From an uncultured Gammaproteobacteria bacterium (lineage in GTDB: Bacteria > Patescibacteriota > Patescibacteriia > SG8-24), in NCBI GenBank assembly GCA_964486995.1, contig CAZAOV010000002.1:26559-90558 (forward strand): a stretch of 64,000 nucleotides of DNA. The letters run 5' to 3'. The position numbers and the translations under genes are program-made. The notes below the pieces were generated by a model. The model was not told where the DNA came from. It searched no databases and saw only the letters and a program-made list of their open reading frames with translations. Shown here piece by piece: positions 7,487-62,795 of the stretch (the stretch's first letter is position 1; every line of letters starts with the position of its first letter).

Positions 7487-7557
7487 ATCGGCAGAGCTTG
7501 CCTCTGCCTATTCGCTATCTACTATAAATTATGGTGGGCAGAGGCAAGCTCTGCCGC
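7487..7557. repeat. family-B palindromic repeat element (ggcagagcttgcctctgcc ... ggcagaggcaagctctgcc), copy 1
   Basis: Two mutually reverse-complementary 19-bp arms, each itself a hairpin, separated by about 30 nt. Located 15 nt upstream of the dnaE start. Confidence 0.7.
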
Positions 7558-7650
7558 CACCCATCTACATCTACCTTATACTAATGCGAGCTTATATAAA
7601 AAGACGAGATGATTCAATCATGTCTTGACCCTAAATCGGGTGTAAGATTT

Positions 7651-8337
7651 TTAATCCTGGCTTTTCGGGGCCAACTCCTCAGCTTTGACGCCTATATTCA
7701 AACCTGGCCCCAGCCTCTTATCCATCTGCTGGAGAAAATACGGCCGGATTTCTTTCGTGAGGGTGCGAAGAATGCTCTGATCACGCCATCGTTTTTCCTG
7801 GATTCGCCGGACGAACTGGTCACGCCTGAATATCATCTCACCTAAATCAATTAAAATAACTTTACCTGCCGTGGTTATGCCGCAATTTTGAGCCGGCAAA
7901 AAGGACTGGGTCATAACTCCCTGTTGCAGCAACCCGAGTGTTAAATCAACATAGCGATCGATAATTTGCCGCTGTTCAGGCAGCTCGACGCGATATAACT
8001 CCTCACCGACCGTGGCCGCCACGCAATCCTGTTCGTAACAACAATTCGGTAAAAACACAGGATTTCCCAATAGGGCTCCATCCAATAAGTGCGCTCTTTC
8101 AGCTAAACCGGATAAAGACTCACGTATGTGACTCTCTACGATGCTTGAACGCTTAAACACTTGGTGCGGGGACAGGCGGCTTTCTTTAAGTACCCTCCAT
8201 AGTCGTTCCCGCCTCGACAGTGGCACCTTCAATACACGCCCCCCGCCAGCCGAAAAAACCGCGAACTGCCAACCTTGACCGATTCGCTCGCCGGCTGTCG
8301 TGATGCGTACCTTTGTCGTAATCATACTTTCTTTCAT
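7651..8337 (-). CDS. protein-kinase-like fold protein (RIO/Kdo-kinase-like motifs), hypothetical
   Basis: H-x-x-DGALLGN and KVILIDLGE resemble the HGDLHxGN and IDFG motifs of the RIO/KdkA/APH kinase superfamily. Confidence 0.35.
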   Translation of the reverse strand: MKESMITTKVRITTAGERIGQGWQFAVFSAGGGRVLKVPLSRRERLWRVLKESRLSPHQVFKRSSIVESHIRESLSGLAERAHLLDGALLGNPVFLPNCCYEQDCVAATVGEELYRVELPEQRQIIDRYVDLTLGLLQQGVMTQSFLPAQNCGITTAGKVILIDLGEMIFRRDQFVRRIQEKRWRDQSILRTLTKEIRPYFLQQMDKRLGPGLNIGVKAEELAPKSQD

Positions 8338-8395
8338 CTATGTCCGCCTTGCGCTGCATGGTCAAGTTTTGACCTTGTGGTAATCTAAATTAAAT

Positions 8396-9043
8396 ATGTC
8401 TTGGTGCGGCAAAATAATCAGCTTTGTACTTATATCGATAGCGATCCTCGCGTTGGTGTCGGTTGGCTTGTTGTGGCGCGTACAAAACAAATATGAGCCG
8501 TTGGTTGCCGCTGATGTCGAAGCCCTCTCCGCCACCAATGTGGTCATCGTATTCGGTGCCGGATTGACGGCGAACAGCACTCGACCGTCGGATATGCTGC
8601 ACGATCGCCTGCAGACTGCAGCTGAAGTCTACCACGCCGGCAAGGCGCGAATAATTTTAGTATCTGGCGACAATCGTTTCGAAAACTACAACGAACCGGA
8701 GGTGATGCGGGAAACTTTAATTGAAGAGTATGATGTGCCGAGAGAAGACATCTACGCCGACTACGCCGGTCGCCGCACCTACGACACTTGCGCCCGTGCG
8801 CACGAACTGTGGGGTGTGCGGCGCGCGATTCTGGTGACACAGAATTTTCATTTGCCGCGCGCACTCATGACATGTTCGACGCTCGGCATAGAAAGCCGGG
8901 GTGTTTCGGCCTCATTACGCCCATATATGTTAATGCAACGCAACAATCTGCGCGAAGCGCTGGCGCAACTTAAGGCGTACTTTGATTTATACATTTGGTC
9001 GCCCGACTATCTGGGCGGTCCGCAAGAAGCGCGGATAGATTAA
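8396..9043 (+). CDS. SanA/YdcF (DUF218) family membrane-anchored protein
   Basis: N-terminal TM and a DUF218-like core (VIVFGAGL...ILVSGDN...ILVTQNFH). A terminator hairpin follows at 9043-9066. Confidence 0.7.
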   Translation: MSWCGKIISFVLISIAILALVSVGLLWRVQNKYEPLVAADVEALSATNVVIVFGAGLTANSTRPSDMLHDRLQTAAEVYHAGKARIILVSGDNRFENYNEPEVMRETLIEEYDVPREDIYADYAGRRTYDTCARAHELWGVRRAILVTQNFHLPRALMTCSTLGIESRGVSASLRPYMLMQRNNLREALAQLKAYFDLYIWSPDYLGGPQEARID

Positions 9044-9070
9044 AAACCACCCAAGCGGGTGGTTTTAGGA

Positions 9071-9751
9071 TCAGTGTAGTAACTCAGAGGGAATCGGCGC
9101 CACTGGTGGCTGCCGCAACCGACGTTGAAACGCCGCACGCCGTCGGTCGATTTCGCTTACGGTTAGCCGCGCGTGCGGCTGATAGCTCCGATACGGCCCG
9201 CGCTCACCGTATGCCGGTCGATAAAGCGGCCGCACATCGAAAAACCAATGCAAGAACAGGTGATTGGCCAAGCTGGGTCGATATCGAACGGTCATATCGT
9301 AGTTGTACCGCGCATATCCGTCGACATTCAGGGCGAACATCGCCTCCAGCCGCACCTGCTGACTGCGTGAATCATGCCGAATGCTGACTGCGGCTATTGG
9401 CACCGTTGGCCGTCCGGGCGGTGAAGATGGATAGGCAACAAACGACACCGTCCGCAGCGAACCGGTGCGCCGCTCAACGCAACCGACGTAATCAACCAAG
9501 CCGTCGCGGTCCCAATCCACGTTGTTAATGCCGTTCGCCGGATCATTGATGAGGGTTTCGAGCGCGGTCATATCGCGCGCCGCACTGCGACCGGTCGAAG
9601 ACATTAGCTCCATCACGGTCTGCAAATTGAAATCTGAGACGGTGGCAACTGGTGCTGCTCTACACGTGTCCTGCTGAGCATACGCCTGTGCTCCGCACAA
9701 CAGAACGCCTCCGAGAACCGCCGCCACGAAAACCGCTCGAATCGACCGCAT
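9071..9751 (-). CDS. secreted hypothetical protein (signal peptide)
   Basis: N-terminal signal peptide with an AYA-QQ cleavage-like site. No further motif. Confidence 0.5.
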   Translation of the reverse strand: MRSIRAVFVAAVLGGVLLCGAQAYAQQDTCRAAPVATVSDFNLQTVMELMSSTGRSAARDMTALETLINDPANGINNVDWDRDGLVDYVGCVERRTGSLRTVSFVAYPSSPPGRPTVPIAAVSIRHDSRSQQVRLEAMFALNVDGYARYNYDMTVRYRPSLANHLFLHWFFDVRPLYRPAYGERGPYRSYQPHARLTVSEIDRRRAAFQRRLRQPPVAPIPSELLH

Positions 9752-9860
9752 GGTCAGCCTCCTTTCAAATGAATGTCGTTCGCATATTTACACGGCGGAA
9801 AAAAAGAGTCAAACACGGCCGTGCAAAAAAACGCGCATTTCTACACGTTTTTTAATTTTG

Positions 9861-9916
9861 CCTGTCTGTACTTTCTCAAGTACTATCTGTCTGTACTTTT
9901 CTGAGTACAGACAGGT
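9861..9916. repeat. direct plus inverted ctgtctgtac repeats forming a 10-bp-stem hairpin
   Basis: The ctgtctgtac unit occurs twice directly. The second copy forms a perfect hairpin (ctgtctgtac-ttttctga-gtacagacag) immediately downstream of the 664-aa gene. Confidence 0.5.
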
Positions 9917-15730: not shown

Positions 15731-15933
15731 TATTCCTCCTCCGCCAAAGTCAATTGACCGGTGACCTTAACTCAATTAGTTTTGAGTATTAATAACGCGA
15801 TGGCGATTTTTTTAAATTAGACAATGATCAGCGAATATGCGAATAGGCAGAGGCAAACCCCCGACATAAGACTGGGGCAGGATCTACAGCTACTTAACAA
15901 AAAAACGCGCCCGATAAAAAGCGCGTTAACTGC

Positions 15934-20580: not shown

Positions 20581-22443
20581 TCAGAGCTGAATCCCCTGGT
20601 CGGTGGCGAGACGACGGAAGGTCGGAGAAACCTGGTGTAGTTTTTCGAACGAATCAGCGACAGCTTCGACTTGCTGTTCGCCGGGCGGTGTGTTTTCGAA
20701 CGAACGCAACACCACGAACTTGGAACATAGTTCGCGCACCGTCGAAAGTCGATGTGTCACGATGAGTGCGGAAACTTCAGGACCCAACAGTTTCTGCAGA
20801 CCATCCTGCACCGCACGTTCGGTAGTGGAGTCGAGCGAGGACGTGGCCTCGTCGATTACCATGAACTTCGGGTGCTTCAGCACCGCCGCGCCGACCATCA
20901 GACGCTGAGCCTGACCGCCGGACAGCTTGATTCCGCGCCGGCCGACTACGGTGTTAAGACCGTCTGTTAACCGTTCGCCGAAATCAATCTTCAACAATCG
21001 CATCACTCGCCAGAGATCCTCGTCGGTAACTTTGTCGCGCTCGTCTTCCGGCAGACCGTACAGCAGGTTATAGCGAATCGTACCGTCGAGTACCTGCGCC
21101 TGCTGAGCGATGTAGCCGATGCGCGATATCCACGAACTCACAGAGACTTCACGCAAATCGTAGCCGCCCACCAAAATCGAACCGCTGGTCGGATCACAAA
21201 AACGCTGCACCAACCGCATCAATGTAGTCTTGCCGGCGCCGGAGTCACCGAGCAGTGCGACCTTCTCGCCCGGCTCGATATCGAACGAAATGTTATCAAG
21301 CACCTTAATGACTTCGTGACCGCGGTCTCTGTAGGCGTAAGTAACACCATCTAGCACCACGTTCACCGACTCTTCCGACGACAACAGTACGGGCTGGTCC
21401 GAATCAACGATATCCGGCTCAACATTCATTGCGCGCCGCAACGACATCACCGACGGCATGCAATGATTCATATGCTCCTCGAGCTTAGACACACGCCACA
21501 TATTGTCACAAATGCGCCGTACCCAAATGTACATCGGCAACATTGCGGCTACGGTCCATTCACCGGACCAAATTCCCCACGACACCAGACACAACATGCC
21601 GAGTGAAATCAAATTAATGACGCTTCCGCGAATGCTGATCATCTGAATGAACCAATGCCAGAAACGCCGGTCTTTGACGATCAGATTGTCGTAATCCTCA
21701 TGCAGTCGATTTGTTTCCTCGTGTTCCTTGCCACATGTCTTCACGCGCTCGATGTTGTCCCAACGCTCCACGCGAAAGCGATTGATGCGACGAAACTCGG
21801 CATCGAGCGGTGTGCACACCTTAAGAATCGACCGATTCAAAAACAGTGAAGAAAACATGTGCAGGAATAATGCGCTAGTCATGACTGCGCCAGCGACTGG
21901 GAATACAATCCACAAAATCGCAAATGAAATGAGCAGTTCGGCGATGCGCACACCACCTTCTAGCAGCATCATCTCCTGCATCTGCAGCAATCGCGCTCTC
22001 CCTTTCTCCATGTTGGCGGCGGACAGGTCATCGCTATCACACATATGCTGACCGAGAGACTTCTCCATGAACATCTCAGTCAGACGCGTATCCAACCGAG
22101 TTATGTTGTATCCCAGGCAGTACTCACGAAAATGCATGAATGCGGTGAAGAACCAATGTGCCAGCAGAAACAACCCGCCAACTGTTCCAAGCGACCGGAC
22201 CAAGGCAGTCCAGTCCCGGGCGATGAGCGCCTCGATGGCCCACTTGATAGCGAGAGGCTCCAGCATGCTGAACACGCTGGCCAGCAACAGACTGATGAGC
22301 GCAGGTACAGCCCAGCGCCGACTTTCCGACGGTACGAACTCGCGCCACGCCCAGCGGAACACCCGAATCGACTCTAACGAATCGGACAGGTACTCGCGCA
22401 CCGTAACATTGGTGTTGCGACTCTCTTCCGGGTCTTTGTACAT
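20581..22443 (-). CDS. ABC transporter, fused permease/ATPase (type I exporter, MsbA-like half-transporter)
   Basis: Six-TM region followed by an NBD with Walker A GDSGAGKTT, signature LSGGQAQRL and Walker B MVIDEATS. RBS ggaggg. Confidence 0.9.
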   Translation of the reverse strand: MYKDPEESRNTNVTVREYLSDSLESIRVFRWAWREFVPSESRRWAVPALISLLLASVFSMLEPLAIKWAIEALIARDWTALVRSLGTVGGLFLLAHWFFTAFMHFREYCLGYNITRLDTRLTEMFMEKSLGQHMCDSDDLSAANMEKGRARLLQMQEMMLLEGGVRIAELLISFAILWIVFPVAGAVMTSALFLHMFSSLFLNRSILKVCTPLDAEFRRINRFRVERWDNIERVKTCGKEHEETNRLHEDYDNLIVKDRRFWHWFIQMISIRGSVINLISLGMLCLVSWGIWSGEWTVAAMLPMYIWVRRICDNMWRVSKLEEHMNHCMPSVMSLRRAMNVEPDIVDSDQPVLLSSEESVNVVLDGVTYAYRDRGHEVIKVLDNISFDIEPGEKVALLGDSGAGKTTLMRLVQRFCDPTSGSILVGGYDLREVSVSSWISRIGYIAQQAQVLDGTIRYNLLYGLPEDERDKVTDEDLWRVMRLLKIDFGERLTDGLNTVVGRRGIKLSGGQAQRLMVGAAVLKHPKFMVIDEATSSLDSTTERAVQDGLQKLLGPEVSALIVTHRLSTVRELCSKFVVLRSFENTPPGEQQVEAVADSFEKLHQVSPTFRRLATDQGIQL

Positions 22444-22463
22444 CTTTCCCTCCGACCAGCACT

Positions 22464-22502
22464 TATCCCCAGAATAGGTGCCAGGGACCTATTCTGGGGA
22501 TA
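22464..22502. repeat. 37-39-bp palindromic element, copy 2, inverted relative to copy 1 (loop tgccaggga)
   Basis: Same stem as 20514-20550 but with the loop reverse-complemented. Lies in the 5' leader of the ABC exporter gene. Confidence 0.7.
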
Positions 22503-22584
22503 AAGCACCTTTTGTATAAGAACAAAACGACCGTGCTCTTCTTCCGAACACGGTCTAGGGAATTCTCTAAATTAAGCTAAAAAC

Positions 22585-26889: not shown

Positions 26890-27162
26890 CGGTTCCTCCT
26901 AAATTCGATGACTGTTTAATCTAGCAGAGGACGAGTGCAACGTCAAGAATATATATGCGAAAGTAAAATTATAGGTCGGTTAAATCACCGTTAAATGTGT
27001 CGCCGCAAAGCTTGTCTCTGCCCATACAGGCACGTACCCGCCGAATTAGGCAGAATCAAGCTCTACAGCTACCGTAAATAAAAAAGACCCCATCAAATTG
27101 AAGGGTCTCGTATAGGCACCGCCCTAGAAGTCGCCGCAGTCCCTGCCGTTGACGCAGGAAAG

Positions 27163-40317: not shown

Positions 40318-40399
40318 GTATCGGCAGAGCTTGTCTCTAGCCATCGTTAATATCTTTTTACTAAATTTCGGTTGGGCAGGGGCGAGCTCTGCCGCTACC
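40318..40399. repeat. family-B palindromic repeat element, copy 2
   Basis: Arms ggcagagcttgtctctagcc and gggcaggggcgagctctgcc. Located 12 nt upstream of the pheS start and 5 nt after the rseP stop. Confidence 0.65.
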
Positions 40400-41680: not shown

Positions 41681-41683
41681 TTT

Positions 41684-42520: not shown

Positions 42521-42545
42521 GGGTTAAGAGTTGGGGTGTTTTAAG

Positions 42546-42643
42546 AGTATAGAAGTATAGGAGTGTAGGGGTGTAGGATACTCGCTCATTTGCACTAGAC
42601 GTCATGCGTAAGCGGGTCTACTACACTTCCATGCTTCTACGAG
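42546..42643. repeat. family-A palindromic repeat element, copy 3 (inverted relative to copy 2)
   Basis: Its core tcatttgcactag is the reverse complement of ctagtgcaaatga in copy 2. The two copies bracket murI. Confidence 0.7.
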
Positions 42644-42689
42644 GTATCGGACATTTCGTGTGGGTAAATAGTCTCTTTTTCTTCTAGTT

Positions 42690-43750: not shown

Positions 43751-43912
43751 TCTCCATGGGAAGCGTGTCTAGTATATGGGGTACAGTCCAATACCATTTT
43801 TTCACGTCATTGACAACGCAGTATACATATTATCCACAATTCAAACCTGTTTTGATTTGTGGATAAAAAAACCCGCTAATCACGGATATTTATTGTCTCG
43901 ACCACCTAAATT

Positions 43913-44140
43913 CTATCGAAAATATGCATCTACCGGTACACGGGAAAAGAAAGTATAAGCCACCACCCCTAGTACCACCAGAACGTGCAAAACCCTTTTC
44001 CCGGTTTTCACCATGCTAATCTTTGGCTTTTTGCTGGCGGACGCGGCCACATGACGGGCGGCTTCACAGCAGTTTTGTTTTCGCATTTTGTTTCCTTCTA
44101 GATGTCTATTTTCATTATACCAAGTTATCCACATATCCAC
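43913..44140 (-). CDS. doubtful small ORF inside the DnaA-box region
   Basis: 75-aa ORF with one hydrophobic segment. No RBS, and it overlaps the DnaA boxes. Confidence 0.15.
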   Translation of the reverse strand: MDMWITWYNENRHLEGNKMRKQNCCEAARHVAASASKKPKISMVKTGKRVLHVLVVLGVVAYTFFSRVPVDAYFR

Positions 44141-44220
44141 AAGTATCTAACCTATGATGATATTTTATAAAAAAGGTCAATACCCCTAGTAAATAATTGA
44201 TTATTGCTCTGTAGATAAAC

Positions 44221-44251
44221 AAAAACTCCGCTTTTTAAAGACGGAGTTTTT
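44221..44251. terminator. rho-independent terminator hairpin (aaaaactccg-ctttttaaaga-cggagttttt)
   Basis: Perfect 10-bp stem with flanking A/T runs, downstream of the mutase gene. Confidence 0.6.
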
Positions 44252-44278
44252 GATCCAATTTAGTAGTTATCCACAACC

Positions 44279-45652
44279 TTATCCACGAATGATTTTTAGC
44301 AGTTCATCGCGATGTATTTTCATATTTTCCTCATCCTTGGCTTCCAGATTCAGTCGGATTTTAGGTTCCGTATTCGATGCCCGAACACTGAACCACCAGT
44401 CCCCTTCCGGCTGTTCTGGATTCATGAATTCCATGCGTACACCGTCGATTCTAATCACGTTTGAGGCCTCACCTGCATACTTTTCCTCGAGCGCCTTAAA
44501 TACTGCTTCTTTATCTGCGACTTCGGAGTTAATCTCACCAGAATGAAAATACCGTAGAAGGGGCGCCACGAGTTCAGATAACGGCTTCCCGGTCTCGGAA
44601 ATAAGCTGCATAAACAACAACATCACATAATCAGAGGATTCCGCACCACAAAACTCACGGAAATAAAAATGATTAGACAGCTCACCAGCAAAAACAGCGT
44701 TAACTTCGCGCATATGAGGCTTAATCAAGCCATGTCCAACGCGAGTCATAACCGGCTTTCCTCCAGCCGCCTCAATCTCCTCAACCGTGGCCATGCTCTC
44801 GCGAACATCATACAAAACAGCTTCACCCTGATTATCACGCAACACTTCGCTAGCAATCAAAGCCGTAATAAAATCGCCGCGCACGGTCTTGCCTTTCTCA
44901 TCGACCAATCCGATTCGATCTCCGTCACCATCAAAAGCCACGCCCAAATCCGCACCAGAATCAACCACTTTCAGCTTTAGTGCATCTAACGTCTTCTCCT
45001 TGAGCGGATTTGCCTCGTGGTTCGGAAACGTGCCGTCCAGCTCCCGGTAAAGCACCTCGTATTCACAGCCGGCAATCTTTGACAGCACGTCATCGATAAT
45101 AATTCCCTCCATGCCATTTCCGGTATCTACCACCACTTTCATCGGTTTTATTTTGCTCACGTCAGCGTCGGAAAACAGCTTCTTTAAATAATCATCTCGG
45201 ATATTTTTTTCGCTCAATGAGCCATTATTTTCAACCGGCTCATATGGACCGGCCAACGCCAAATCGCGTATGTCATCCATGCCATTTGAACCACCAATCG
45301 GCAACGCATCACCGAGACAAATCTTTACGCCATTATATTCGCTCGGGTTGTGCGAGGCTGTCACCATCACCCCGGCTTCGTGCTCCGCATACTGGCAAGC
45401 CGCAAAATAAATCATCGGCGTGGTAACCATGCCAACATCAACCACATCGCTTCCCTGCGACATGATTCCTTTGGCGAGTGCTTCGAACAGCTCCGGCGTA
45501 GTCGAGCGCATGTCTTTTCCGACCGCAATCACCTTGGCATCGGTGAATTTAACGATTGCTTGGCCAATGCGATAAGCACCATCAGTATCAAGCTGCTCGG
45601 GAGATAAACCTCGGATATCGTAGGCTTTAAAGATAGAACCGTCTAAAGGCAT
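44279..45652 (-). CDS. phosphomannomutase/phosphoglucomutase (alpha-D-phosphohexomutase family)
   Basis: Active-site loop TASHNPSEYNGVK, metal-binding DGDGDR, and sugar-binding loop. Confidence 0.9.
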   Translation of the reverse strand: MPLDGSIFKAYDIRGLSPEQLDTDGAYRIGQAIVKFTDAKVIAVGKDMRSTTPELFEALAKGIMSQGSDVVDVGMVTTPMIYFAACQYAEHEAGVMVTASHNPSEYNGVKICLGDALPIGGSNGMDDIRDLALAGPYEPVENNGSLSEKNIRDDYLKKLFSDADVSKIKPMKVVVDTGNGMEGIIIDDVLSKIAGCEYEVLYRELDGTFPNHEANPLKEKTLDALKLKVVDSGADLGVAFDGDGDRIGLVDEKGKTVRGDFITALIASEVLRDNQGEAVLYDVRESMATVEEIEAAGGKPVMTRVGHGLIKPHMREVNAVFAGELSNHFYFREFCGAESSDYVMLLFMQLISETGKPLSELVAPLLRYFHSGEINSEVADKEAVFKALEEKYAGEASNVIRIDGVRMEFMNPEQPEGDWWFSVRASNTEPKIRLNLEAKDEENMKIHRDELLKIIRG

Positions 45653-45979
45653 ATACGTTGGTGGTTAATTGCGATTTTTCTAATTTAACTGGTTGGAGGG
45701 ATGGAGGCGCAAAAAAAATATAAAGCATATAAGGACAGTAGAGCTGGCGGATAAATGAAGACGCTCTGCCGCCCTTCTGCTCCCAGACACTTGTAAACTA
45801 TACACCCCTCACCACCAGACTGAATCTCTGGGGGTAACTAGACTTGACGCAAAATCCAAAATTCGCCTAAATTATCCCCATTTTTCGTTGACTTTAGCCT
45901 TATTTTTACCTATAATGAAGGTAGGTATAAGTGTAATCACTAAACTGCGGCTAGGCAAATTTTCGTTTATTGAGCGAAG

Positions 45980-46570
45980 TTGCGCCGCATCATGAAATTA
46001 TATATGACCGGACTAACAATAGCTGCCGCGGTCGTTCTCGGCCTCATCCTAATCTTGGCAGTGTGGATAATAGCTGTTTACAACAGTTTAATCACACTAC
46101 GTAACCGCACGGACGAAGCCTGGTCCGATATCGACGTTCAGCTCAAACGCCGTTATGACCTGATTCCAAATCTGGTTGAGACCGTTAAGGGTTACGCCTC
46201 ACACGAACGCGAAACCCTGGAGAAAGTCACCCAAGCTCGCAATATGGCGATGAGTGCGGAAGGCAAACACGATAAGGCCGAAGCTGAAAATATGCTTTCC
46301 CAAACTCTGAAATCTTTGTTCGCGGTAGCTGAGAACTACCCGGACCTGAAGGCGTCACAGAACTTCCTCCAACTGCAGGATGACCTGAAAGATACCGAGG
46401 ATAAAATACAAGCTGCGCGCCGTTTCTATAACGCAAACGTCCGGGACTTCAACACAAAGATACAGATTTTCCCAAATAACGTTATCGCCGGTCAGCTAAA
46501 TTTCGAAAAATACGAGTTCTTCGAAATTGAGAACGAAAAGGAGCGCGAGAATGTACAAGTAAAGTTCTAG
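45980..46570 (+). CDS. lemA: LemA family protein
   Basis: N-terminal TM plus a LemA core ([31 protein letters not shown]...YNANVRDFN). Confidence 0.85.
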
Positions 46571-46576
46571 ATTTCA

Positions 46577-46656
46577 TGTAGCGGCAGGGCTTGCTCCTGC
46601 TTATTGAGCCGAGTTCGCGCTTGCAACCGAAAGCAGGGGCAAGCCCTGCCGCTACG
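46577..46656. repeat. family-B palindromic repeat element, copy 3
   Basis: Arms gcggcagggcttgctcctgc and gcaggggcaagccctgccgc. Located 10 nt upstream of the htpX start. Confidence 0.65.
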
Positions 46657-46665
46657 AATCTGACT

Positions 46666-47556
46666 ATGACAACTTACGACTTCATATCATCGAACAAGCA
46701 GAAGTCGGTCCTGCTAATAATCGTATTCACGGTATTGGTCGTTGCAGTTGGTGCGCTAGTTGATCGTATGTACGGCGGCGGCGGATTTATTCTAGCGATT
46801 GCGATTGGTTACTCGCTGTTCAGTTCGCTGATTGGATTCTACTCGGGAGACAAAGTCGCACTGGCAGTGTCTGGCGCAAAAGAAATCAGCGAAGCCGACA
46901 ACCCGTACTTGTATCGAATGGTTCAAAATCTTTGCATCAGCGTCGGCATGCCGATGCCTAAGCTGCACGTGATGGATGATCCGGCGATAAACGCTTTTGC
47001 CACTGGACGCGACCCGGAGCACTCGTCGATTGCGGTGACGACCGGGGCGCTACAGCACCTGGAAAACGAAGAACTGGAGGGTGTGCTGGCACATGAGCTG
47101 TCGCATATAAAAAACTACGACATTCGAGTGATGACTCTGGTGATGGTATTGGCGGGAACGATTGCGATTATTGCTGACTTGGCGTTGCGCTCGTTCATCT
47201 GGGGTGGTGGTCGCCGCAAACGCGAAGGCGGCGGAGCGCTCCTGATAGTTGGGCTGATCCTGATGATAATCGCGCCGATTGTGGCGCAACTCATAAAACT
47301 GGCCGTTTCCAGAAAGCGCGAGTATCTAGCCGACGCATCAGGGGCACTAATGACCAGGTTTCCAGAAGGGCTGGCGCGAGCGCTAGAAAAAATCAGCGCG
47401 CAAAATCAACCGATGAAAAAAGCTTCCGGGGCAACGGCACATCTGTTCATAGCGAATCCGTTCCGCGGAAAATCGATGGCTTCGTTCTTCGGAACGCATC
47501 CACCGGTAGAAAAACGCATTCAAGCCCTGCGAAAAATGGCGGGGACAGGAATATAA
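46666..47556 (+). CDS. htpX: protease HtpX (M48 family zinc metalloprotease)
   Basis: HELSHIKNYD (HExxH), N-terminal TM helices, and lemA-htpX synteny. The start MTTYDF was chosen because the repeat occupies the upstream part of the ORF-track call. Confidence 0.9.
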   Translation: MTTYDFISSNKQKSVLLIIVFTVLVVAVGALVDRMYGGGGFILAIAIGYSLFSSLIGFYSGDKVALAVSGAKEISEADNPYLYRMVQNLCISVGMPMPKLHVMDDPAINAFATGRDPEHSSIAVTTGALQHLENEELEGVLAHELSHIKNYDIRVMTLVMVLAGTIAIIADLALRSFIWGGGRRKREGGGALLIVGLILMIIAPIVAQLIKLAVSRKREYLADASGALMTRFPEGLARALEKISAQNQPMKKASGATAHLFIANPFRGKSMASFFGTHPPVEKRIQALRKMAGTGI

Positions 47557-47573
47557 CTAAAACGTATAGAAGT

Positions 47574-47673
47574 GTAGGAGTGTAGGGGTGTAGAAGACCA
47601 GCCCACTTACGAATGACGCCCAACGTAAGCGAGCGGGTCTTCTACACTTCTACACCTCTAAACTTCTACACTC
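47574..47673. repeat. family-A palindromic repeat element, copy 4
   Basis: gtatagaagtgtaggagtgtaggggtgtagaagacc ... core acgtaagcgagcgggtcttctacac ... inverted units. Confidence 0.7.
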
Positions 47674-47707
47674 AAAAACAAAAAATAAAAATAAGGGGTC
47701 AAACTAT

Positions 47708-50329
47708 ATGCATACCGATATCCTCGATAAATTCACCGCACACCTCAAGAATGCGCTGGCGAAATCATATTCTTTAGCGGCAGAACTGTCCTCTACCGGT
47801 ATCCATCCGGAACACCTGCTATTGTCGCTCCTTATGCAGCGAGGAAGCATGGGTGGCGAATTGCTCCGTCAGTCCAATTTAAGCGCCGAAGAGCTGCGTC
47901 AGATGCTCATCGCGGTGAATCAGTTCACCCCGGGCGACGGTAAGGAAGGTGCCCCCAAACTATCGGCAGAATCAAAGCGAGCCATCGAGAAGGCGGTTTT
48001 AGTCGCCAATACGCACGAGCATCGCTACGTCGGTACCGAACATTTATTGTTCGGTATTTTAGAAATCGGCTCGCCGGTCGTTGATGCAATCCTAACTGAC
48101 CAAGAAGTGGATATCGTCTGGCTCCGTGATCAAATTATCAATACTTTAAACAGCACTTCCAAGTTCCCGGAAATCACCGAAACGTTCGAGTCTGGTGTGG
48201 TGCCTGGACAGGACATCAGCACGGAAGATCAGGCGATTGCGCTCGAAGCGAGCGAAGCCACGCAAGTCGGCAGCAAAACCCCAGCATTGGATTTCTTTGC
48301 CGTGGACCTAACCGACCCCAAGGTCCAAGAGGATATAGATCCGGTTATCGGCCGGAGCACGGAAATCAATCGGCTGGTTCAGGTACTGTCCCGACGCACC
48401 AAGAACAATCCCGTATTGCTCGGTGAACCAGGCGTTGGCAAGACGGCCATCGTGGAAGGTCTGGCCAAAAAGATCGTGCAGGGTGATGTGCCGGAAGTGC
48501 TGGCTGACAAACGTATCCTGGCGCTGGATCTCGGAATGATGATCGCCGGAACAATTTATCGCGGTGAATTTGAAGGTCGCATCAAACAGATTACCGATGA
48601 GGTAAAGGCTAATCCGAACGTGATTGTTTTCATTGACGAAATGCACAACATCATGGGTGCCGGTTCGACCAACGGCTCTATGGATGCGGCAAACCTCCTG
48701 AAACCTGCGCTGGCTCGAGGCTACATGCACTGCATAGGTGCGACTACTATTTCTGAATTTAAAAAACACATTGAGTCCGACGGAGCGCTGGAGCGTCGAT
48801 TTCAATCCATAATGGTCGACCAGCCCAGCCTCGAAGCCACGGTAGAAATTCTAAAAGGCTTACGAGACGGCTATGAAAAACATCACGAGGTTACCATTGC
48901 TGATGACGCAATTCATGCCGCAGTCGAACTTTCTGACCGCTATCTCACCGAGCGTTTCCTTCCGGATAAGGCGATTGATCTTATTGACGAGGCGTCCGCG
49001 CGTGCGCGCGTTTCCCGCGGTGATGACTCCAAGGTCAAGCAGTTATCTCGTCTGGAATCGGAAATCGAAAAAGTACGCGCCCGCAAACAAGGTGCGGTAC
49101 ACGGCGAGAACTTCATCGAGGCATTGGAACTTAAAGGTGAAGAAGGCCGCCTAGTTAAACAACTATCCAAGACCAAAGAGGGTAACCGCAACCGAAAGCG
49201 AAGCAGAGCCTCCACAATCACACGCAATCATATCGCAGAAATTATCGCGCAGGCCACCGGAATTCCAATGAATGAACTCGTGTCAGAAGAGAGGGTCCGA
49301 CTGCTAAATCTGGAAACACATCTTGGCGCCAAAATTCATGGCCAAGACGAGGCCATCAATCAAGTAGCCGAAATGGTACGTCGTGCCAAAGCCGGCATGG
49401 CGCATCCGCAACGTCCGTTGGCATCGTTCATGTTCCTTGGTCCGTCTGGTGTAGGAAAGACCGAGCTGGCCAAGGTGCTCGGCGCGGAAATCTTCCATGA
49501 TCCAGAAGCTGTGGTTCGTATCGACATGTCCGAATTCTCTGAAGGATTCAATATGTCCAAGCTGGTTGGTGCTCCGGCAGGCTATGTCGGCTACCGCGAA
49601 GAGACCAAGCTGACCGACTTGGTGAAACGCAAACCTCACTCGTTGGTGCTATTTGACGAAATAGAAAAGGCCCATCCGGATGTGCATAATTTGCTTCTGC
49701 AGATTTTGGAAGATGGCCACATCACCGATGCCACAGGAAGAAAAATCAACTTCAAAAATACTATCGTAATAATGACTTCCAACGTCGGTGCCGCGCAGCT
49801 TCAAGCCTCTGGAATCGGCTTCTCGGCCGACGGCCATGACGCCAATCTACACATGGAAGACATTAGCTCAACCATCAATAGCGAGTTGCAGACCTCATTC
49901 CGGCCGGAATTCCTAAACCGTATCGACAAGGTGGTGGTGTTCCGCTCGCTCAACAAGAAAGATTTGGAGTCTATCGCCGGCCTGCACTTCAGTCAGTTGG
50001 CTGACCGCCTGGCCACCGACCACAGCATCATCCTAGAGGCCGACGACAGCGCCATTAAATTCCTAGCCGATAAAAGCTGGGATCCGTCATTCGGCGCGCG
50101 CACAATACGACGTCAACTGCAAGAGCATGTTGAGAGCCCGCTAGCTAAGTCATTACTCGCCGAAGACCACGGCCCCGGCGACAAAATAAAGATTACGGTC
50201 AAGAAGGGCAAGATTGATTTCAGCAAGAGCAAGAAAACCGCGAGTAAGACCGCCAGGAAGACTACGTCATCGGGCAAAGAGCCAAATGCCTCGAAATCAA
50301 AGAAGAAAGCAAATGCCAATGCCAAGTAG
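47708..50329 (+). CDS. clpC: ATP-dependent Clp protease ATP-binding subunit, ClpC-like (two AAA+ modules)
   Basis: Two Clp_N repeats at the N-terminus. Walker A sites [15 protein letters not shown] and [15 protein letters not shown]. Short inter-domain linker, so ClpC/ClpA-type rather than ClpB. Confidence 0.85.
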
Positions 50330-51020
50330 CAATTCAGTACAGCCGGAGAGCGACTGGGGGCGGCAACTTGAGCAGGAACGCCTCAAGAATTTAGTGCACC
50401 AAAAAAATATAGGAGCGCCAGTAAAGACGGTAGATTCCGTGACGGATTTTGGCTCAGCCGAATCGATAGATAACTCGCGAAACTGGGCGCAGGAACTAGA
50501 GCGAAAGCGGATGAAATTCGCCCTAAACAGCGGCATGGCGCTACCGGGACCCGGAGCGGCCGCCGGCACTGCATCAAAGAGTGCATCTTCCGGCGGAACG
50601 GGTCTCCCCGCATCGATCAATCCGCAACAGATGATGCAACAGCATGGTTTTTTGGGAGGTCTTATCAAGCTCTTCGGTGCCATGAGCGAACAGGCCACAA
50701 AACCAGTACTAAAGCAGCTAATTGCTTGGCACTGGGGATTGCTTCCGACAATAAAAGGAACGTTAATCTCATTACTCCTTTCCGGCCCGGCACTTAACGC
50801 TTGGCTGTTCTACGCACATATCTGGCGTAAACCCGGCCTCTGCAAATTCGACCCCTTTGATTTACTCGCCGTGCTAGTCTACGACTTAATAGTTTTACTG
50901 CTGGTTGGCGTAATATTGGTGGCGATTGTTCTACTCAGCGTAACCGCCATATGTTTTGCCACCCCGTCAGAATGTCCGTCTTTCGTGGTTGAGGCAGCCA
51001 GCGGAGTCATTAATTTCTAA
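50313..51020 (+). CDS. hypothetical membrane protein (two C-terminal TM helices)
   Basis: The start MPMPSS was chosen to avoid overlap with clpC. Gly/Ala/Ser-rich middle region and hydrophobic C-terminus. Confidence 0.4.
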   Translation: MPMPSSNSVQPESDWGRQLEQERLKNLVHQKNIGAPVKTVDSVTDFGSAESIDNSRNWAQELERKRMKFALNSGMALPGPGAAAGTASKSASSGGTGLPASINPQQMMQQHGFLGGLIKLFGAMSEQATKPVLKQLIAWHWGLLPTIKGTLISLLLSGPALNAWLFYAHIWRKPGLCKFDPFDLLAVLVYDLIVLLLVGVILVAIVLLSVTAICFATPSECPSFVVEAASGVINF

Positions 51021-51042
51021 TCTGGCAATTTAAATTCGTCCT

Positions 51043-52260
51043 ATGTTTAAAAGAATCGGTCTTATAGTTCTGTTTATCGCGGTAACCTTCGCCATCGGTT
51101 TAGGACTGTACTTTATGATCTTTGGGTTGCCCGAAGCAGAGCCAGAAATTCCGCCGGAGGAAATCGTTAACGTTCCACCAACCGGTTTGGAACCGTCGGA
51201 ACCAGCCAAACCGACTGTTCCGCCCGAGGAGCAGGAGGTGGGCCTGCCCCAGCCGCCGGCAGTTTCGCCGATTGCTGATGGTGGCATCACACAAGTTACG
51301 CCAGTTACGCCCGCTTCGACCAGAAGCGCCATGCTAAACGATTCCGGAGAGTTGAGCTACTACAACCGTAACGACGGAAAGTTCTATCGCGTTAAAGACG
51401 ACGGAACGATTATGTCGCTGTCGGATGAAGTTTTCTATAACGTGAACGAAGCCACTTTCAATCCAAGCGGCGATAGCGCTATCCTGGAATATCCAGACGG
51501 CTCTAACATCTACTACGATTTCACCACCGATACCCAAGTCACCCTGCCCCAGCATTGGGAAGATTTCGATTTCAGCCCACAAGGCAATCAAATTGCCGCC
51601 AAGAGTGTGGGCTTGGACCCGTCGAACAGGTTCGTTATCGTATCTAATCCAGACGGCTCGGGTGCAAAGCCAGTCCAAGAGATGGGCCAGAACCAAGATG
51701 AAGTTATCGTTGACTGGTCACCAAACAATCAGATAGTAGCCACGGCCACCACCGGACGAAAGCTGGGCGTCGATCGGCACGAAGTGTATTTCATCGGTCA
51801 GCACCACGAAAACTTCCGCTCCCTGATTGTAGAGGGTTTGAATTTCCAGCCGAAATGGTCACCGTCTGGAGAGCAGCTCCTGTACTCGTCAGCAAGCAGC
51901 ACCTCGGATTGGAAACCGCAGCTTTGGATTGTTGACGGGTCTGGTGATGACATCGGTCTGAACCGTCGTTCCATCAGTGTGGAAACCTGGGCCGAAAAAT
52001 GTACGTTCGCTGACCAAGAAACTCTGTACTGCGCCGTACCGCGCGAACTACCGCGCGGCGCCGGTCTGCAACCACGTATTGCAGACAACACTCCGGACGA
52101 TATCGTGAAAATTGATATGGTGACTGGTCTGCAGACTTCCGTGGCAATTCCAGAAGGCTCACATACCATCGACTCCATCATGCTGACTCCGGACGGAAAA
52201 AATCTCTATTTCACCGACAAGGGCACCGGTCAGCTCAATCAGATAAAATTAAGACCGTAA
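51043..52260 (+). CDS. membrane-anchored TolB-like beta-propeller protein
   Basis: Signal anchor, Pro-rich linker (PEAEPEIPPEE...), then repeated WSP/DGS blade-like segments typical of TolB/PD40 propellers. Confidence 0.55.
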   Translation: MFKRIGLIVLFIAVTFAIGLGLYFMIFGLPEAEPEIPPEEIVNVPPTGLEPSEPAKPTVPPEEQEVGLPQPPAVSPIADGGITQVTPVTPASTRSAMLNDSGELSYYNRNDGKFYRVKDDGTIMSLSDEVFYNVNEATFNPSGDSAILEYPDGSNIYYDFTTDTQVTLPQHWEDFDFSPQGNQIAAKSVGLDPSNRFVIVSNPDGSGAKPVQEMGQNQDEVIVDWSPNNQIVATATTGRKLGVDRHEVYFIGQHHENFRSLIVEGLNFQPKWSPSGEQLLYSSASSTSDWKPQLWIVDGSGDDIGLNRRSISVETWAEKCTFADQETLYCAVPRELPRGAGLQPRIADNTPDDIVKIDMVTGLQTSVAIPEGSHTIDSIMLTPDGKNLYFTDKGTGQLNQIKLRP

Positions 52261-52268
52261 CTTTTTCG

Positions 52269-52339
52269 GTAGCTGCACAGCTTGTCTGCGCCCGTCAATA
52301 ATCTTAAAGTGCTGGGCGGAGACAAGCTCCGCAGCTACG
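52269..52339. repeat. family-B palindromic repeat element, copy 4
   Basis: Arms ggtagctgcacagcttgtctgcgccc and gggcggagacaagctccgcagctac. Located 9 nt upstream of the DsbA-like start. Confidence 0.6.
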
Positions 52340-52347
52340 ACGATACT

Positions 52348-53010
52348 ATGAAGCGTTCCCCCCTGTTCCTTGGCATCCTAACGCTGGCAGCAATCCTGCT
52401 GCTCATGGTGTATGGCATTTCAGCCATCGCACCGCTGTTTGAGGTAAAAGAAGAGGAGCCGAAAGCAGAACAGCCGCAAATAGCGACACCCACTATTGAT
52501 TTCGGCAACCCGAGCTTCGGCCCAAGTAACGCTGACCTGACCATTGTGGTATATGGCGACTATCAGTGCCCGTCGTGTGCCGGTTTTGATGCCACACTGG
52601 TGAAAGTGTTATCTGACTTCCCAAACGTCAGGCTGGTCTGGAAGGATATTCCAAACACCAGTCGTTACGCCGAATCCAGGGACGCGGCCATCGCCGGACG
52701 CTGCGCCAAAGAACAGGGCGCTTTCTGGGAGTATCATGATATTTTAATGGCTAATCGAGATTCGCTAACCGAAACCAACTATCCGATATTCGCGATGCAA
52801 CTTGGATTAGATTCAGAACAGTTCCTCTCTTGCCTGCAAGACCGCACACCAGACGCACTGATTCAACGAGACATCGATGAAGCTATCGCTATCGGCGTCA
52901 ACGCCTCACCTTATGTGTTTATTGGCAATCAACCCTACGCCGGCAGTATGCCCGAAGAACGTCTGCGAACAATAATCGAGTCCGAACTGGATCGTCTCGG
53001 AACTCCATAA
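52348..53010 (+). CDS. DsbA-like thiol:disulfide oxidoreductase (thioredoxin fold), membrane-anchored
   Basis: CPSC active-site motif after a signal anchor, with a thioredoxin-like core. Confidence 0.7.
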   Translation: MKRSPLFLGILTLAAILLLMVYGISAIAPLFEVKEEEPKAEQPQIATPTIDFGNPSFGPSNADLTIVVYGDYQCPSCAGFDATLVKVLSDFPNVRLVWKDIPNTSRYAESRDAAIAGRCAKEQGAFWEYHDILMANRDSLTETNYPIFAMQLGLDSEQFLSCLQDRTPDALIQRDIDEAIAIGVNASPYVFIGNQPYAGSMPEERLRTIIESELDRLGTP

Positions 53011-53026
53011 AAAACAAGCCGACCAC

Positions 53027-53800
53027 ATGCCGGACAAGAAAAACAAAACGAAAAAATGGACCGGCGCTGGAGCGACCGCTTTGGTGGCTTTTTATTTACT
53101 TATGCCTCTCTCCGCAAACGCGTTTTGTTTGATAACCGAAGGCACCAGCTGCGGCCCTGAATGTGAAGAAGCGGAAGATTGCGGGTTCTTTGAAGACAGT
53201 GCGACAGGACGTTGTGAAATGACCGTTGATGCGGAAACTGAAACATCGGATCTGTTCTGTCGCGACGCCGCAGAGTTGGTGGAAGACGCCGCGGTGGCGG
53301 AGGCGGCCGCCGAGGCAACCGACCAAGCAATACAAGAAAGACGAGAGCGAGAGGCACGAATCGCTGGTCAGGACGCCCTGCCAGACCTTTCGGTGAGCAT
53401 TCCGGGCGTTCAGTTTTCTGAAATCAGGAAGACAAAGTCCGATGATGGGATGTACTACATCATAGAAATACCCTGGATGGCTGACTATATTATCGGCGTA
53501 TATCGCTATTCGGTTTTCATCGGCAGTATTCTGTCCGTAGTAATGATAATGATCGGCGGAATTCAATGGCTTACAGCCGGCGGCGACGCCAGCCGAGTGA
53601 CTAACGCCAAAAACCGAATCAACAATGCCGTAGTTGGGCTAGTGCTCATATTGGGATCGTTCTTGGTACTAAATACCATTAACCCGAGGCTGACCATGCT
53701 AAATCCACTACAGGTAAAAGTGGTAAACGAGGAACGCTACAACGTTCGTGAGGTACTGCAGACGACCACCGAAGACACCGGCAACCCGCTAGAGCTATAA
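53027..53800 (+). CDS. secreted Cys-rich protein with a VirB2/TrbC-like (T4SS-pilin-like) double-TM hairpin domain (split form, part 1)
   Basis: Signal peptide, a 9-Cys N-terminal module, then the conserved IPWMADYIIGVYRYSVFIGS...GGIQWLTAGGDASRV...VGLVLILGSFLVLNTINP two-helix domain shared with the next two fused paralogs. Confidence 0.55.
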   Translation: MPDKKNKTKKWTGAGATALVAFYLLMPLSANAFCLITEGTSCGPECEEAEDCGFFEDSATGRCEMTVDAETETSDLFCRDAAELVEDAAVAEAAAEATDQAIQERREREARIAGQDALPDLSVSIPGVQFSEIRKTKSDDGMYYIIEIPWMADYIIGVYRYSVFIGSILSVVMIMIGGIQWLTAGGDASRVTNAKNRINNAVVGLVLILGSFLVLNTINPRLTMLNPLQVKVVNEERYNVREVLQTTTEDTGNPLEL

Positions 53801-61646: not shown

Positions 61647-61802
61647 ACAGGGTTACAATAGATAAAAAGATGGCGAGATGCAAAGCTCGCAAAGAGGCGA
61701 CACCGGTAATGTGCCGGCATTTCATGGCTGTGACACGTGAATCCCGGCGGCCGTGCTTCCTGAGCCTCGTAAGGTTCGCTCACTCGGCATCGCTCACCAT
61801 GT

Positions 61803-61838
61803 CGCCACGTAAAAATCCCAGACGAGCTGGGATTTTTA
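61803..61838. terminator. perfect palindromic terminator hairpin (cgccacgtaaaaatccca-gacgagc-tgggatttttacgtggcg)
   Basis: 18-bp perfect stem immediately 3' of the tRNA-Arg on the minus strand. Confidence 0.55.
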
Positions 61839-61840
61839 CG

Positions 61841-61916
61841 TGGCGTACCCGGGACGATTTGAACGTCCGACCTCTTCCTCCGCAGGGAAGCGCTCTATCC
61901 ACTGAGCTACGGGTAC
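61841..61916 (-). tRNA. tRNA-Arg (anticodon GCG)
   Basis: 76-nt cloverleaf folded by hand: 7-bp acceptor stem, D arm GCTC/GAGC with A20, anticodon stem CTTCC/GGAAG with loop CTGCGGA, T arm GGACG-TTCAAAT-CGTCC, and an encoded CCA. Confidence 0.75.
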
Positions 61917-62106
61917 AGGGTGGTATTTTATTTTAAAAACGGTAGCTCGGATACATATTTTGTTGGCTAACCGCCCTGCAAAATGAATGTCCTCGCCTGG
62001 GTTATGTATTGGTGCGACTGCCGAACTCCGATCTTCAGAGGGACGATTATCTATAAAGGCAGAGCTGGGCTCTGCCAATACGACTCACAATATTAGCAGA
62101 TTCTTT

Positions 62107-62601
62107 CTAAAGTTTCAAGATGCGCCCGAGAAAATCCATAAAGGGCTCTTCATTCTCCTCAAAATCCTCCGGTAAGTACTGCCCCAACACCCGACGAATT
62201 TGGTTCGGATTCTGATCCATGAGCGGTAACGACAGCAAAGGTCGCGAAACCGCCTTAAAATCAAGATACATATTCTTGACCTCCGGCGGATCATACACGA
62301 ACCAATAGCGCTTAACGTCCCGATAGGGATAAAACTGCTCTCCCACCTTGATGCCGTCCTGCGAAATTTCCACCTGCTGATTCTCTGGCCCCTTGAGAGA
62401 AGTCAGATAAATAACCAGCGCAAACATCAGTATCAGCAGTGCGAATAAAAAGTTAGCAGAAGCCACAGCATAAATCAAGAGACTTATGCCAATCAAAATC
62501 ATAATCGCATACCAAGCCCGCCCACGACGATAGCGGTCGCTTTCATCAATCTCCCAAGTAATCACGATATCCGACTCGTTGGAGCTTTGATTGTCCAGCA
62601 T
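62107..62601 (-). CDS. hypothetical membrane protein (two TM helices)
   Basis: Hydrophobic pair AWYAIMILIGISLLIYAVASANFLFALLILMFALVIYL with soluble flanks. Confidence 0.5.
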   Translation of the reverse strand: MLDNQSSNESDIVITWEIDESDRYRRGRAWYAIMILIGISLLIYAVASANFLFALLILMFALVIYLTSLKGPENQQVEISQDGIKVGEQFYPYRDVKRYWFVYDPPEVKNMYLDFKAVSRPLLSLPLMDQNPNQIRRVLGQYLPEDFEENEEPFMDFLGRILKL

Positions 62602-62714
62602 AAAAATTGGGATTATTTGTTATTCATATTTTAGCGTAAAATGGCCTGTTAAGCCAGCAAAACCTGAAGTTCGACGTTCGGTTGCGTCATTCGTGTGAGA
62701 CGAACCGTTCATTT

Positions 62715-62795
62715 ATCGGGCATCTGCAGGACTTGCCCCTGCCCTGCGGCAGAAACACGCCGCTCGATTCTATGGGCAGAGGCAAGCCCTGTAGC
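62715..62795. repeat. family-B palindromic repeat element, copy 5
   Basis: Arms ctgcaggacttgcccctgccc and gggcagaggcaagccctgtag, in a divergent promoter region. Confidence 0.6.

Follow-up and report, generated by a model that had tools for sequence, protein, structure and literature searches.

We find that a palindromic repeat, here called family B, is very probably made up of repetitive extragenic palindromes (REPs) that carry a GTAG tag and are paired head to head, with the tags outward, as REPIN-like units. The repeat was found in a stretch of 64,000 nt from a Patescibacteria genome (contig CAZAOV010000002.1 of assembly GCA_964486995.1, positions 26,559 to 90,558), which we call the window. 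An initial annotation, made by reading the letters of the window, had noticed copies ending about 10 nt before start codons without Shine-Dalgarno (SD) sites, and had proposed a function in translation initiation, mRNA processing or stability, or attenuation, rather than REP insertion. The GTAG tag, the head-to-head dimers and the presence of REP-associated tyrosine transposase (RAYT)-like genes flanked by the same repeat overturn the last part of that proposal. Comparison with related genomes indicates that family B was inserted into tight operon junctions that already lacked an SD; the element stands about 10 nt before start codons because it landed in very short SD-less gaps, and not because the genes need it.

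Searching the window with the arm query GGCAGRGCTTGYCTCTGCC, with up to 3 mismatches allowed, returned 11 arm matches, against 0.08 expected from shuffled controls. A profile built from the arms recovered 12 of them in the 64 kb, forming six inverted doublets, and all six, together with the remnants described below, are intergenic. From outside to inside, each arm consists of a 5-nt tag followed by a 19-nt core, GGCAGRG-CTTGY-CYCTGCC, which is itself a hairpin with a 7-bp stem; written in full, a unit of tag plus hairpin reads GTAGC-GGCAGGGCTTGCCCCTGCC. The 12 tags are GTAGC (6), GTATC (2), GTGGC (2) and degenerate (2). Within each doublet the arms are reverse complements and the tags point outward. 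The initial annotation had thus described the arm and its partner correctly, and the five copies it listed are all present where it placed them; its spacer of 30-40 nt was too long, as we measure 20-33 nt between the 19-nt cores. An inverted-repeat comparison gave arms of 20-26 nt, 77-100% complementary and separated by 20-29 nt. The copies had also been called double hairpins. Each arm is indeed a palindrome, but the minimum-energy fold of the RNA is a single long hairpin in which arm 1 pairs with arm 2, rather than two adjacent hairpins. Its stems are near-perfect and 20-25 bp long, with energies of -36 to -64 kcal/mol and z-scores of -3.9 to -8.9 relative to shuffled controls. The double hairpin is an alternative fold, and is the relevant form for each REP arm as single-stranded DNA.

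GTAG-REPs have stems of 6-13 bp that include G.T pairs and form head-to-head (HH) dimers with spacers of 20-100 bp; they lie mostly between same-direction and convergent open reading frames (ORFs), close to ORF 3' ends, and the TAG of the tag can serve as a stop codon (PMC3733652). Such dimers are also named REPINs in two further papers (PMC3337134, PMC3116915). REPs of the GTAG superfamily are short imperfect palindromes of 20-40 bp with a conserved tetranucleotide (GTAG, more generally GTRG/GYAG) at one end. Family B has a short self-folding palindrome (the 19-nt core with its 7-bp stem), the GTAG tetranucleotide at one palindrome end, many dispersed extragenic copies (six doublets in 64 kb, and at least 119 plus at least 120 loci elsewhere), and inverted arms that fold as a single long hairpin. 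A spacer conserved among copies, which would be expected of REPINs, was not found. Within the arm, stem pair 6-14 covaries (G-C 90, A-T 40, G.T 10, A.C 0). We did not find the exact repeat sequence in the bacterial literature, where searches returned only unrelated eukaryotic primer matches, and the supplements of the GTAG-REP survey (PMC3733652) do not contain it. Our literature search found no paper linking REP, REPIN or RAYT with Patescibacteria, so as far as the searched literature shows, REPs and REPINs in this group are unreported. At the gathering score, Rfam 15 recognized two tRNAs only in the window; at a relaxed threshold, the copy between lemA and htpX (doublet 3 below) gave generic hairpin matches to miRNA precursors, far below the cutoffs.

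Family B extends well beyond the window. A search for paired arms of this type through 185,579 species genomes yielded at least 119 loci, and a metagenome scan for the GTAGC variant of the window at least 120, so that the repeat is known from more than 230 loci in Acidobacteriota, Planctomycetota, Armatimonadota, Chloroflexota, Bacteroidota, Nitrospirota and unassigned metagenome contigs. Among the matches listed, the hosts in the genome scan are mainly Acidobacteriota (Pyrinomonadaceae, Blastocatellia), several loci lie on megabase contigs, and single large contigs hold at least 17 loci each. The genome loci listed comprise about 110 doublets, nearly all of them GTAGG-GGCAGGGCTTGTCCCTGCCCG, a variable spacer, and CGGGCAGGGACAAGCCCTGCC-CCTAC; their spacers vary in most loci, the exception being an 83-nt subfamily in one Blastocatellia metagenome-assembled genome (MAG). 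Of the metagenome arms listed, 197 of 233 carry the GTAGC tag; besides lone arms there are tandem arrays, dimers with outward tags, and heterodimers whose partner has a GGTGGGGG stem. Viral contigs gave only six family-B matches, and phage carriage of the repeat is not prominent.

Several arrangements seen in these scans deserve a record of their own. A REPIN subfamily of 83-84 nt with a conserved, internally structured spacer occurs in Blastocatellia MAGs (L003, L008, L012, L019, L022, L040, L050, L059, L071, L089, L098, L105, L106 and L119), as part of a larger element that is bounded by the terminal repeats GGGCTGTAACAAAGT...ACTTTGTTACAGCCC; it looks like a composite or nested mobile element. 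Metagenome contigs L172, L179 and L147 hold head-to-tail arrays of 3-6 family-B arms with a period of 31-35 nt. These are REP clusters and not arrays of clustered regularly interspaced short palindromic repeats (CRISPR), because the gaps between units are too short. In a Cytophagales MAG (L112, 2660-2990), a long tandem array of units of about 23 nt (CTCAAAACACAGTTCTYAACR) adjoins a REPIN; downstream of it come a small ORF and a gene resembling RAYTs.

We compared orthologous junctions between the window and six syntenic contigs (L122, L123, L124, L245, L246 and L247). HtpX homologues assign the window to the Patescibacteria: matches at 74-80% identity bear the name 'Patescibacteria group bacterium' and those at 71% 'Candidatus Uhrbacteria'. 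The rseP-pheS junction, which spans 97 nt in the window and holds family B, is empty in L245 (TAAtgatATG, 4 nt) and in L247 (TAAaatatATG, 5 nt), and in L246 it is 51 nt long with no palindrome. At the lemA-htpX junction (95 nt in the window, family B), L122 also has family B, L246 is empty with 18 nt, L123, L124 and L245 carry three other palindromic repeat families, and L247 has a small hairpin. The junction between a TolB-like and a DsbA-like gene (87 nt in the window, family B) is empty in L124, L245, L246 and L247 (14, 11, 20 and 1 nt, respectively), holds a family-B trimer in L122, and is occupied by another family in L123. Empty orthologous junctions are therefore found in 2/3 relatives for pheS, 1/6 for htpX and 4/6 for dsbA. 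None of the empty junctions in L124, L245, L246 and L247 has an SD. At lemA-htpX the flanks left over in the window amount to 7 + 10 = 17 nt, against 18 nt at the empty site of L246, and no target duplication flanks the copies when they are set against the empty sites. Family B is thus present or absent at orthologous sites without target duplication, as is characteristic of REPIN mobility, and the conserved presence before orthologous genes that would be expected of a leader RNA was not observed. Since the orthologous junctions are empty and equally SD-less, family B was inserted at these sites, and the SD was already missing before it arrived.

The other palindromes at these junctions form a pattern of their own. 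The lemA-htpX and TolB-like-DsbA-like junctions hold genome-specific palindrome families in some close Patescibacteria relatives and are empty in others, and L123 is unlike the window and L122 at two junctions simultaneously. This occupancy by several families could reflect an insertion hot spot, nested insertion into older palindromes, or selection for some hairpin of whatever sequence. We considered a 'conserved centre', GCGCTTGC, at lemA-htpX as a site-specific signal and rejected it; it is more likely a REP-derived GCTTGC motif. The window itself contains a second palindromic repeat, family A (39110-39236 and 47564-47671), whose arms are built of 3-4 tandem 8-mers, (A/G)GTGTAG(A/G), each containing GTAG. 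Of the two family-A copies, one takes up the pheS-pheT junction to within 8 nt of the pheT ATG, and the other follows the htpX stop. Analogous palindromes built from 8-mers occur in the relatives, with GATGTTKA in L123, GGGCAGAAG in L245 and GAGTGAG in L122.

To describe where family B lies relative to genes, we scored 116 non-redundant doublets, 110 of them outside the window, against the nearest long ORFs; the position counts given here are all from the matches listed. The flanking genes are co-directional in 55 cases, convergent in 21 and divergent in 5. The copies thus lie, as expected of REPs, between same-direction and convergent pairs and near ORF 3' ends. Outside the window, 30/110 doublets lie within 10 nt of a stop codon and 17/110 within 17 nt of a start, and in 9 doublets the stop codon falls inside the tag. 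Like published REPs, the copies are associated above all with stop codons. Across the whole family an association with starts is seen in part: among co-directional doublets the distance to the ATG is 9-14 nt in 14/55 and 2-5 nt in 5 more, but most copies are not near starts at all (17/110). Almost all of the start-proximal co-directional doublets have a stop codon within 8 nt of their other end, leaving 0-19 nt of non-element spacer, the size of an ordinary operon junction. Where a same-strand junction is tight, the stop is the closer neighbor of the element in 15 cases and the start in none, with 2 ties. Placement is therefore non-random, as had been proposed, and this 15:0 asymmetry is real; compaction plus selection, rather than a role in initiation, is the best explanation for it. 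The 10 nt before the ATG are the part of a short junction left over by an insertion close to the stop, a spacing that may be sharpened by selection to keep the initiation region free.

A gene for a RAYT-like Y1 transposase accompanies family B at three loci outside the window. On contig L197, the ORF at 2772-3314 encodes 180 residues with HUH (NHIH), WQ and YIRRNP motifs and passes the Pfam Y1_Tnp model (29.8 against a cutoff of 23). Its best NCBIfam match is REP_Tyr_transpos at 63.7 bits (E = 1.7e-17), below the curated RAYT cutoff of 80 and far above the 27.2 that it scores as IS200, and it resembles known structures of IS200-like proteins and of TnpArep. Directly upstream of this ORF stand three GTAGCGGCAGGGCTTGTCCCTGC units in tandem, and an inverted unit overlaps its 3' end. 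Like this ORF, its relatives on L248 (59% identical) and L249 (56%) are each bracketed by inward-pointing family-B REPs, and on L249 the transposase stop codon is supplied by the REP tag. The protein has few relatives, some of which the Joint Genome Institute (JGI) names 'REP element-mobilizing transposase RayT'. The REP-RAYT association thus holds for family B, and by extension a RAYT would have mobilized the copies in the genome of the window as well.

Two further candidates were rejected as partners of family B, in that each is flanked by other repeats. The RAYT of L015, a Pyrinomonadaceae MAG, passes the NCBIfam RAYT model (82.6 against 80) and matches E. coli TnpArep (4er8) at 5e-8; the RAYT-like gene of L112 scores 50.4 bits with the same model, below the cutoff. 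The L015 gene is flanked by a 39-nt inverted repeat (GGAGTGCGCCGGCAGAGCGCAGCGGCGACGGCGCTTTGG) at 5571-5608 and 6196-6234, and the same MAG also carries the GTAGG-GGCAGGG family, which means that it contains at least two REP systems.

Some observations weigh against reading family B as a mobile REP family. There is no Y1 transposase or RAYT gene in the 64-kb window, RAYTs flanked by the same REPs being seen in L197, L248 and L249; all three are contigs without taxonomic assignment, and the L197 protein falls short of the RAYT cutoff, as noted above. The six spacers of the window share no common sequence, which is an ill fit with recent copying of whole REPIN units. The start-proximal share is 4/6 in the window and 17/110 in the family at large, among the matches listed; such a high share fits the extreme compaction of the genome. 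Finally, palindromes of 80-110 nt from four unrelated families occupy the lemA-htpX junction in 5/7 related genomes.

For the individual copies in the window, Pfam confirms the flanking genes that the initial annotation had named: dnaE, pheS, rseP (M50), lemA, htpX (M48), a PD40/TolB-like gene and a DsbA-like gene. Doublet 1 (7485..7560), between the ORF at 7651-8337(-) and dnaE(-), has arms GTATC-GGCAGAGCTTGCCTCTGCC and a reverse complement ending in GCCAC, which are 100% complementary across a 28-nt spacer (-53.8 kcal/mol). Doublet 2 (40318..40398) fills the rseP(-)/pheS(-) junction; doublet 3 (46578..46655), with arms GTAGCGGCAGGGCTTGCYCCTGCT that are 96% complementary (-63.6 kcal/mol), lies between lemA(+) and htpX(+); and doublet 4 (52269..52338), between TolB-like(+) and DsbA-like(+), has the variant arms GTAGCTGC(A/G)(C/G)AGCTTGTCT(G/C)CGCCC, the right one with a compensatory G-C pair inside its own stem. 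These three copies do occupy intercistronic gaps of same-strand pairs, as the initial annotation had it, and the upstream stop (rseP, lemA and TolB-like) lies 5, 7 and 8 nt, respectively, from the near end of the doublet. From the other end (the CTAC tag) to the ATG there are 12, 11, 10 and 9 nt for dnaE (ATG 7472), pheS (40306), htpX (46666) and the dsbA-like gene (52348), respectively. As for dnaE, the Pfam match places the beginning of the PHP domain, which carries the FVHLHVHS motif, at residue 7 and so secures the start codon at 7472.

The remaining copies are placed differently. Doublet 5 (62715..62798) sits in a divergent intergenic region, 118 nt from the ORF at 62107-62601(-) and 105 nt from that at 62904-63557(+). 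An ATG at 62812, 13 nt past this doublet, opens an ORF of a mere 19 codons, and doublet 5 is not adjacent to a real start codon. Doublet 6 (26999..27073), GTCGCCGCAAAGCTTGTCTCTGCCC ... AGGCAGAATCAAGCTCTACAGCTAC, is degenerate (-41.2 kcal/mol); it follows the terminator-like hairpin of an upstream (-) gene and lies 109 nt before an SD-led ATG at 26889. The initial annotation had taken it for a partial single arm at about 27005. Its other partial arm is a decayed remnant (15845..15893; AGGCAGAGGCAAACCCCCGAC ... GGGGCAGGATCTACAGCTAC) between two (-) genes, beside a terminator-like hairpin; we read it directly, and the nhmmer arm profile did not recover it. A lone perfect hairpin without a GTAG tag (62058..62076; GGCAGAGC-TGG-GCTCTGCC) lies between a tRNA gene and the stop of the ORF at 62107-62601 and matches the profile weakly (E=1.5). 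At the corresponding place the related contig L139 carries a complete family-B doublet, so that the lone hairpin may be a collapsed copy.

The claim that in every case the element ends about 10 nt before an SD-less ATG accordingly stands for four copies, at 9-12 nt, and fails for doublets 5 and 6. No GGAG, GAGG or AGGA was found upstream of the dnaE, pheS, htpX and dsbA-like ATGs. That most other genes of the window have strong SDs, as had also been stated, is contradicted by our count: an SD-like motif precedes the first start codon in 15/54 long ORFs, and in at most 28/54 when any candidate start is allowed. Four SD-less neighbors out of four are unremarkable, because SD motifs are not the rule among the ORFs of the window.

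Two public gene calls next to these copies can be corrected. HtpX (protein P0001) is called as 311 aa, which is 15 residues too long, with a start inside doublet 3 (window 46621-46665). The DnaE call (locus L121; window 7427-7472) is truncated: it starts at an internal ATG 15 codons downstream and loses FVHLHVHS. An exact-sequence query with PheS returned no record, and other proteins encoded in the window are recorded solely on short Logan contigs.

Could the transcribed hairpin be what matters? The hairpin, whichever repeat family it came from, would then be kept at certain junctions as a functional intercistronic RNA module of the polycistronic mRNA. As a processing site for RNase III or RNase E, as a barrier to decay or as an insulator, it would set the relative expression of the neighboring cistrons or allow SD-independent initiation about 10 nt downstream. 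We regard this as unlikely. The clustering of ATG distances at 9-14 nt is what such a module would predict, as is the fact that, among the matches listed, no element in a tight junction lies nearer to the start than to the stop. Near-perfect stems of 20-25 bp are of the size cut by RNase III, and their energies reach -64 kcal/mol. The occupation of lemA-htpX by four families, and the family-A copy before pheT, also speak for it. Against the module, the same essential genes are served in relatives by empty, equally SD-less junctions, and 2/6 window copies and most copies elsewhere, among the matches listed, are not near starts. These same two facts argue against the role in translation initiation at SD-less genes that the initial annotation had suggested. 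The covariation within the arms supports the hairpin of each arm on its own, which is the DNA-level substrate of a transposase, and the element matches no Rfam family. Moreover, when we counted mismatches in 55 doublets oriented by the direction of transcription, the sense strand had no excess of G.U over A.C, either in the long hairpin (9 G.U and 14 A.C) or in the small hairpins (15 and 15). This argues against selection at the RNA level, because an RNA-selected structure should favor G.U; structure kept on the transcribed strand, as expected of a leader RNA, was thus not seen.

A broader form of this idea, to which we give little credence, is that these very compact Patescibacteria genomes have put long palindromes to use between cistrons, with one repeat family able to stand in for another. 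By serving as targets of RNase III, as obstacles to decay or as insulators, such modules would uncouple neighboring cistrons, while the SD-less downstream cistron would keep a short unstructured leader of about 10 nt. If true, this would explain the four families at lemA-htpX in 5/7 genomes and the avoidance of starts. The insertions themselves raise the question of how essential genes such as pheS are translated with an 80-nt hairpin of -36 to -64 kcal/mol inserted in an SD-less junction of 4-20 nt. In E. coli, REP hairpins stabilize upstream mRNA and affect translation when they are close to stop codons, and in the window, too, family B probably has secondary effects on how mRNA is processed or decays.

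Two other routes to initiation were rejected. The tag region, CTAC(A/G)AT, could act as a -10 box for a leaderless mRNA beginning at the ATG, but the final T is usually absent and the spacing is 6-10 nt; a promoter scan found nothing suitable in doublets 2 and 3, and in doublet 4 a weak match of 9/12 at 52274-52302. Nor does folding of the hairpin bring an upstream SD to the ATG, as no SD motif lies upstream of any start-proximal copy.

That the copies are transcription terminators or attenuators between genes is scarcely credible. They are strong, G+C-rich intergenic hairpins, and doublet 6 and the remnant at 15845 adjoin terminator-like hairpins. However, an intrinsic terminator combines such a hairpin with a T-run, and no T-run follows any copy (doublets 1-5 were read); none of the 21 terminator-like sites at 39000-53500 coincides with a doublet. 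Three copies, moreover, lie within operons, where an essential or housekeeping gene follows directly and its promoter is farther up, for instance the 11/12 match at 45888-45916 before lemA.

It is also highly unlikely that family B is a miniature inverted-repeat transposable element (MITE) mobilized by a DDE-type transposase, in the manner of Correia elements, with terminal inverted repeats, a target duplication and possibly outward promoters. A palindromic unit of 70-85 bp that is intergenic and often near start codons would suit such an element, as would the weak promoter-like match inside doublet 4. Comparison with the empty sites reveals no direct duplication, however, and doublets 2 and 3 contain no promoter-like site. 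The arms are GTAG-tagged hairpins that also occur as singlets, tandem arrays and heterodimers, and the repeat flanks Y1, not DDE, transposase genes.

We therefore return to family B as a REP family, for which the following course may be proposed. Family-B units would be non-autonomous mobile DNA. A RAYT (Y1/HUH) acting in trans would recognize tag plus hairpin on single-stranded DNA and move or copy the unit without target duplications. Copies would have landed in intergenic DNA, mostly in operon junctions of about 1-20 nt that already lacked an SD, and insertion a few nucleotides past the upstream stop would have left 9-12 nt of old spacer before the next ATG. Once transcribed, the unit would fold as a long stable hairpin that loops out the insert and brings the old flanks next to each other, which probably explains why the insert is tolerated. 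On this account, REP/REPIN-RAYT systems extend to a streamlined genome of the candidate phyla radiation, a single REP core is common to at least six phyla, and a repeat that is conspicuous in the raw sequence is explained without a new regulatory mechanism.

Apart from family B, the window contains a DnaA-box-like motif, TTATCCMCA, at 9 positions against 0.64 expected (43830-44275; 20512; 22463-22503; 45872; 46062). The intergenic region 43745-44279 holds four perfect TTATCCACA boxes, of which two form an inverted pair; the cluster could be an origin of replication or a site regulated by DnaA. Near-identical 40-nt palindromes containing TTATCCCCA bracket the gene at 20581-22443.

Among known systems, the intercistronic RNase III sites of phage T7 offer a functional analogy only: like family B, they are long hairpins shortly before the next start, but they are unique conserved processing signals, whereas family B is a dispersed repeat. 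Correia elements, the MITEs of Neisseria, are likewise palindromes of about 100 bp, often upstream of genes, whose co-transcribed hairpins can be cut by RNase III; they have 26-bp terminal repeats, a TA duplication and possible promoters, whereas family B has GTAG-tagged self-folding arms, no duplication and a link to Y1 transposases. The bacterial interspersed mosaic elements (BIMEs) of E. coli, pairs of REPs or palindromic units (PUs), resemble it in their inverted REP pairs, their intercistronic or 3' positions and their transcription as stable hairpins, and differ from it in REP sequence and loop structure. The internal motifs specific to BIMEs and their binding of proteins (IHF, gyrase, Pol I) are not evident in family B, where no search aimed at them was made. 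BIMEs act on the stability of mRNA and, if the stop codon is no more than about 15 nt away, on translation of the upstream gene. The central GCTTG(C) of family B also recalls the loop region of Pseudomonas REPs. The closest likeness is with the GTAG-REP/REPIN-RAYT systems of Pseudomonas, Stenotrophomonas and enterobacteria, which (PMC3733652, PMC3116915, PMC3337134) share with family B the GTAG tag, a stem of 7-9 bp with a short loop, inverted tag-outward units that are separated by 20-30 nt and able to form a single hairpin, numerous intergenic copies, mostly where genes are convergent or run in the same direction and near stops, with TAG sometimes as the stop, G.T stem pairs, and, for family B on L197, L248 and L249, Y1/HUH transposase genes flanked by the repeat. 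Family B differs in that its host here belongs to the Patescibacteria, its core spans at least six phyla and its spacers are not conserved. And whereas the published REP survey describes variable distances to downstream ORFs, family B unusually often fills junctions of 1-20 nt and ends 9-12 nt before starts.

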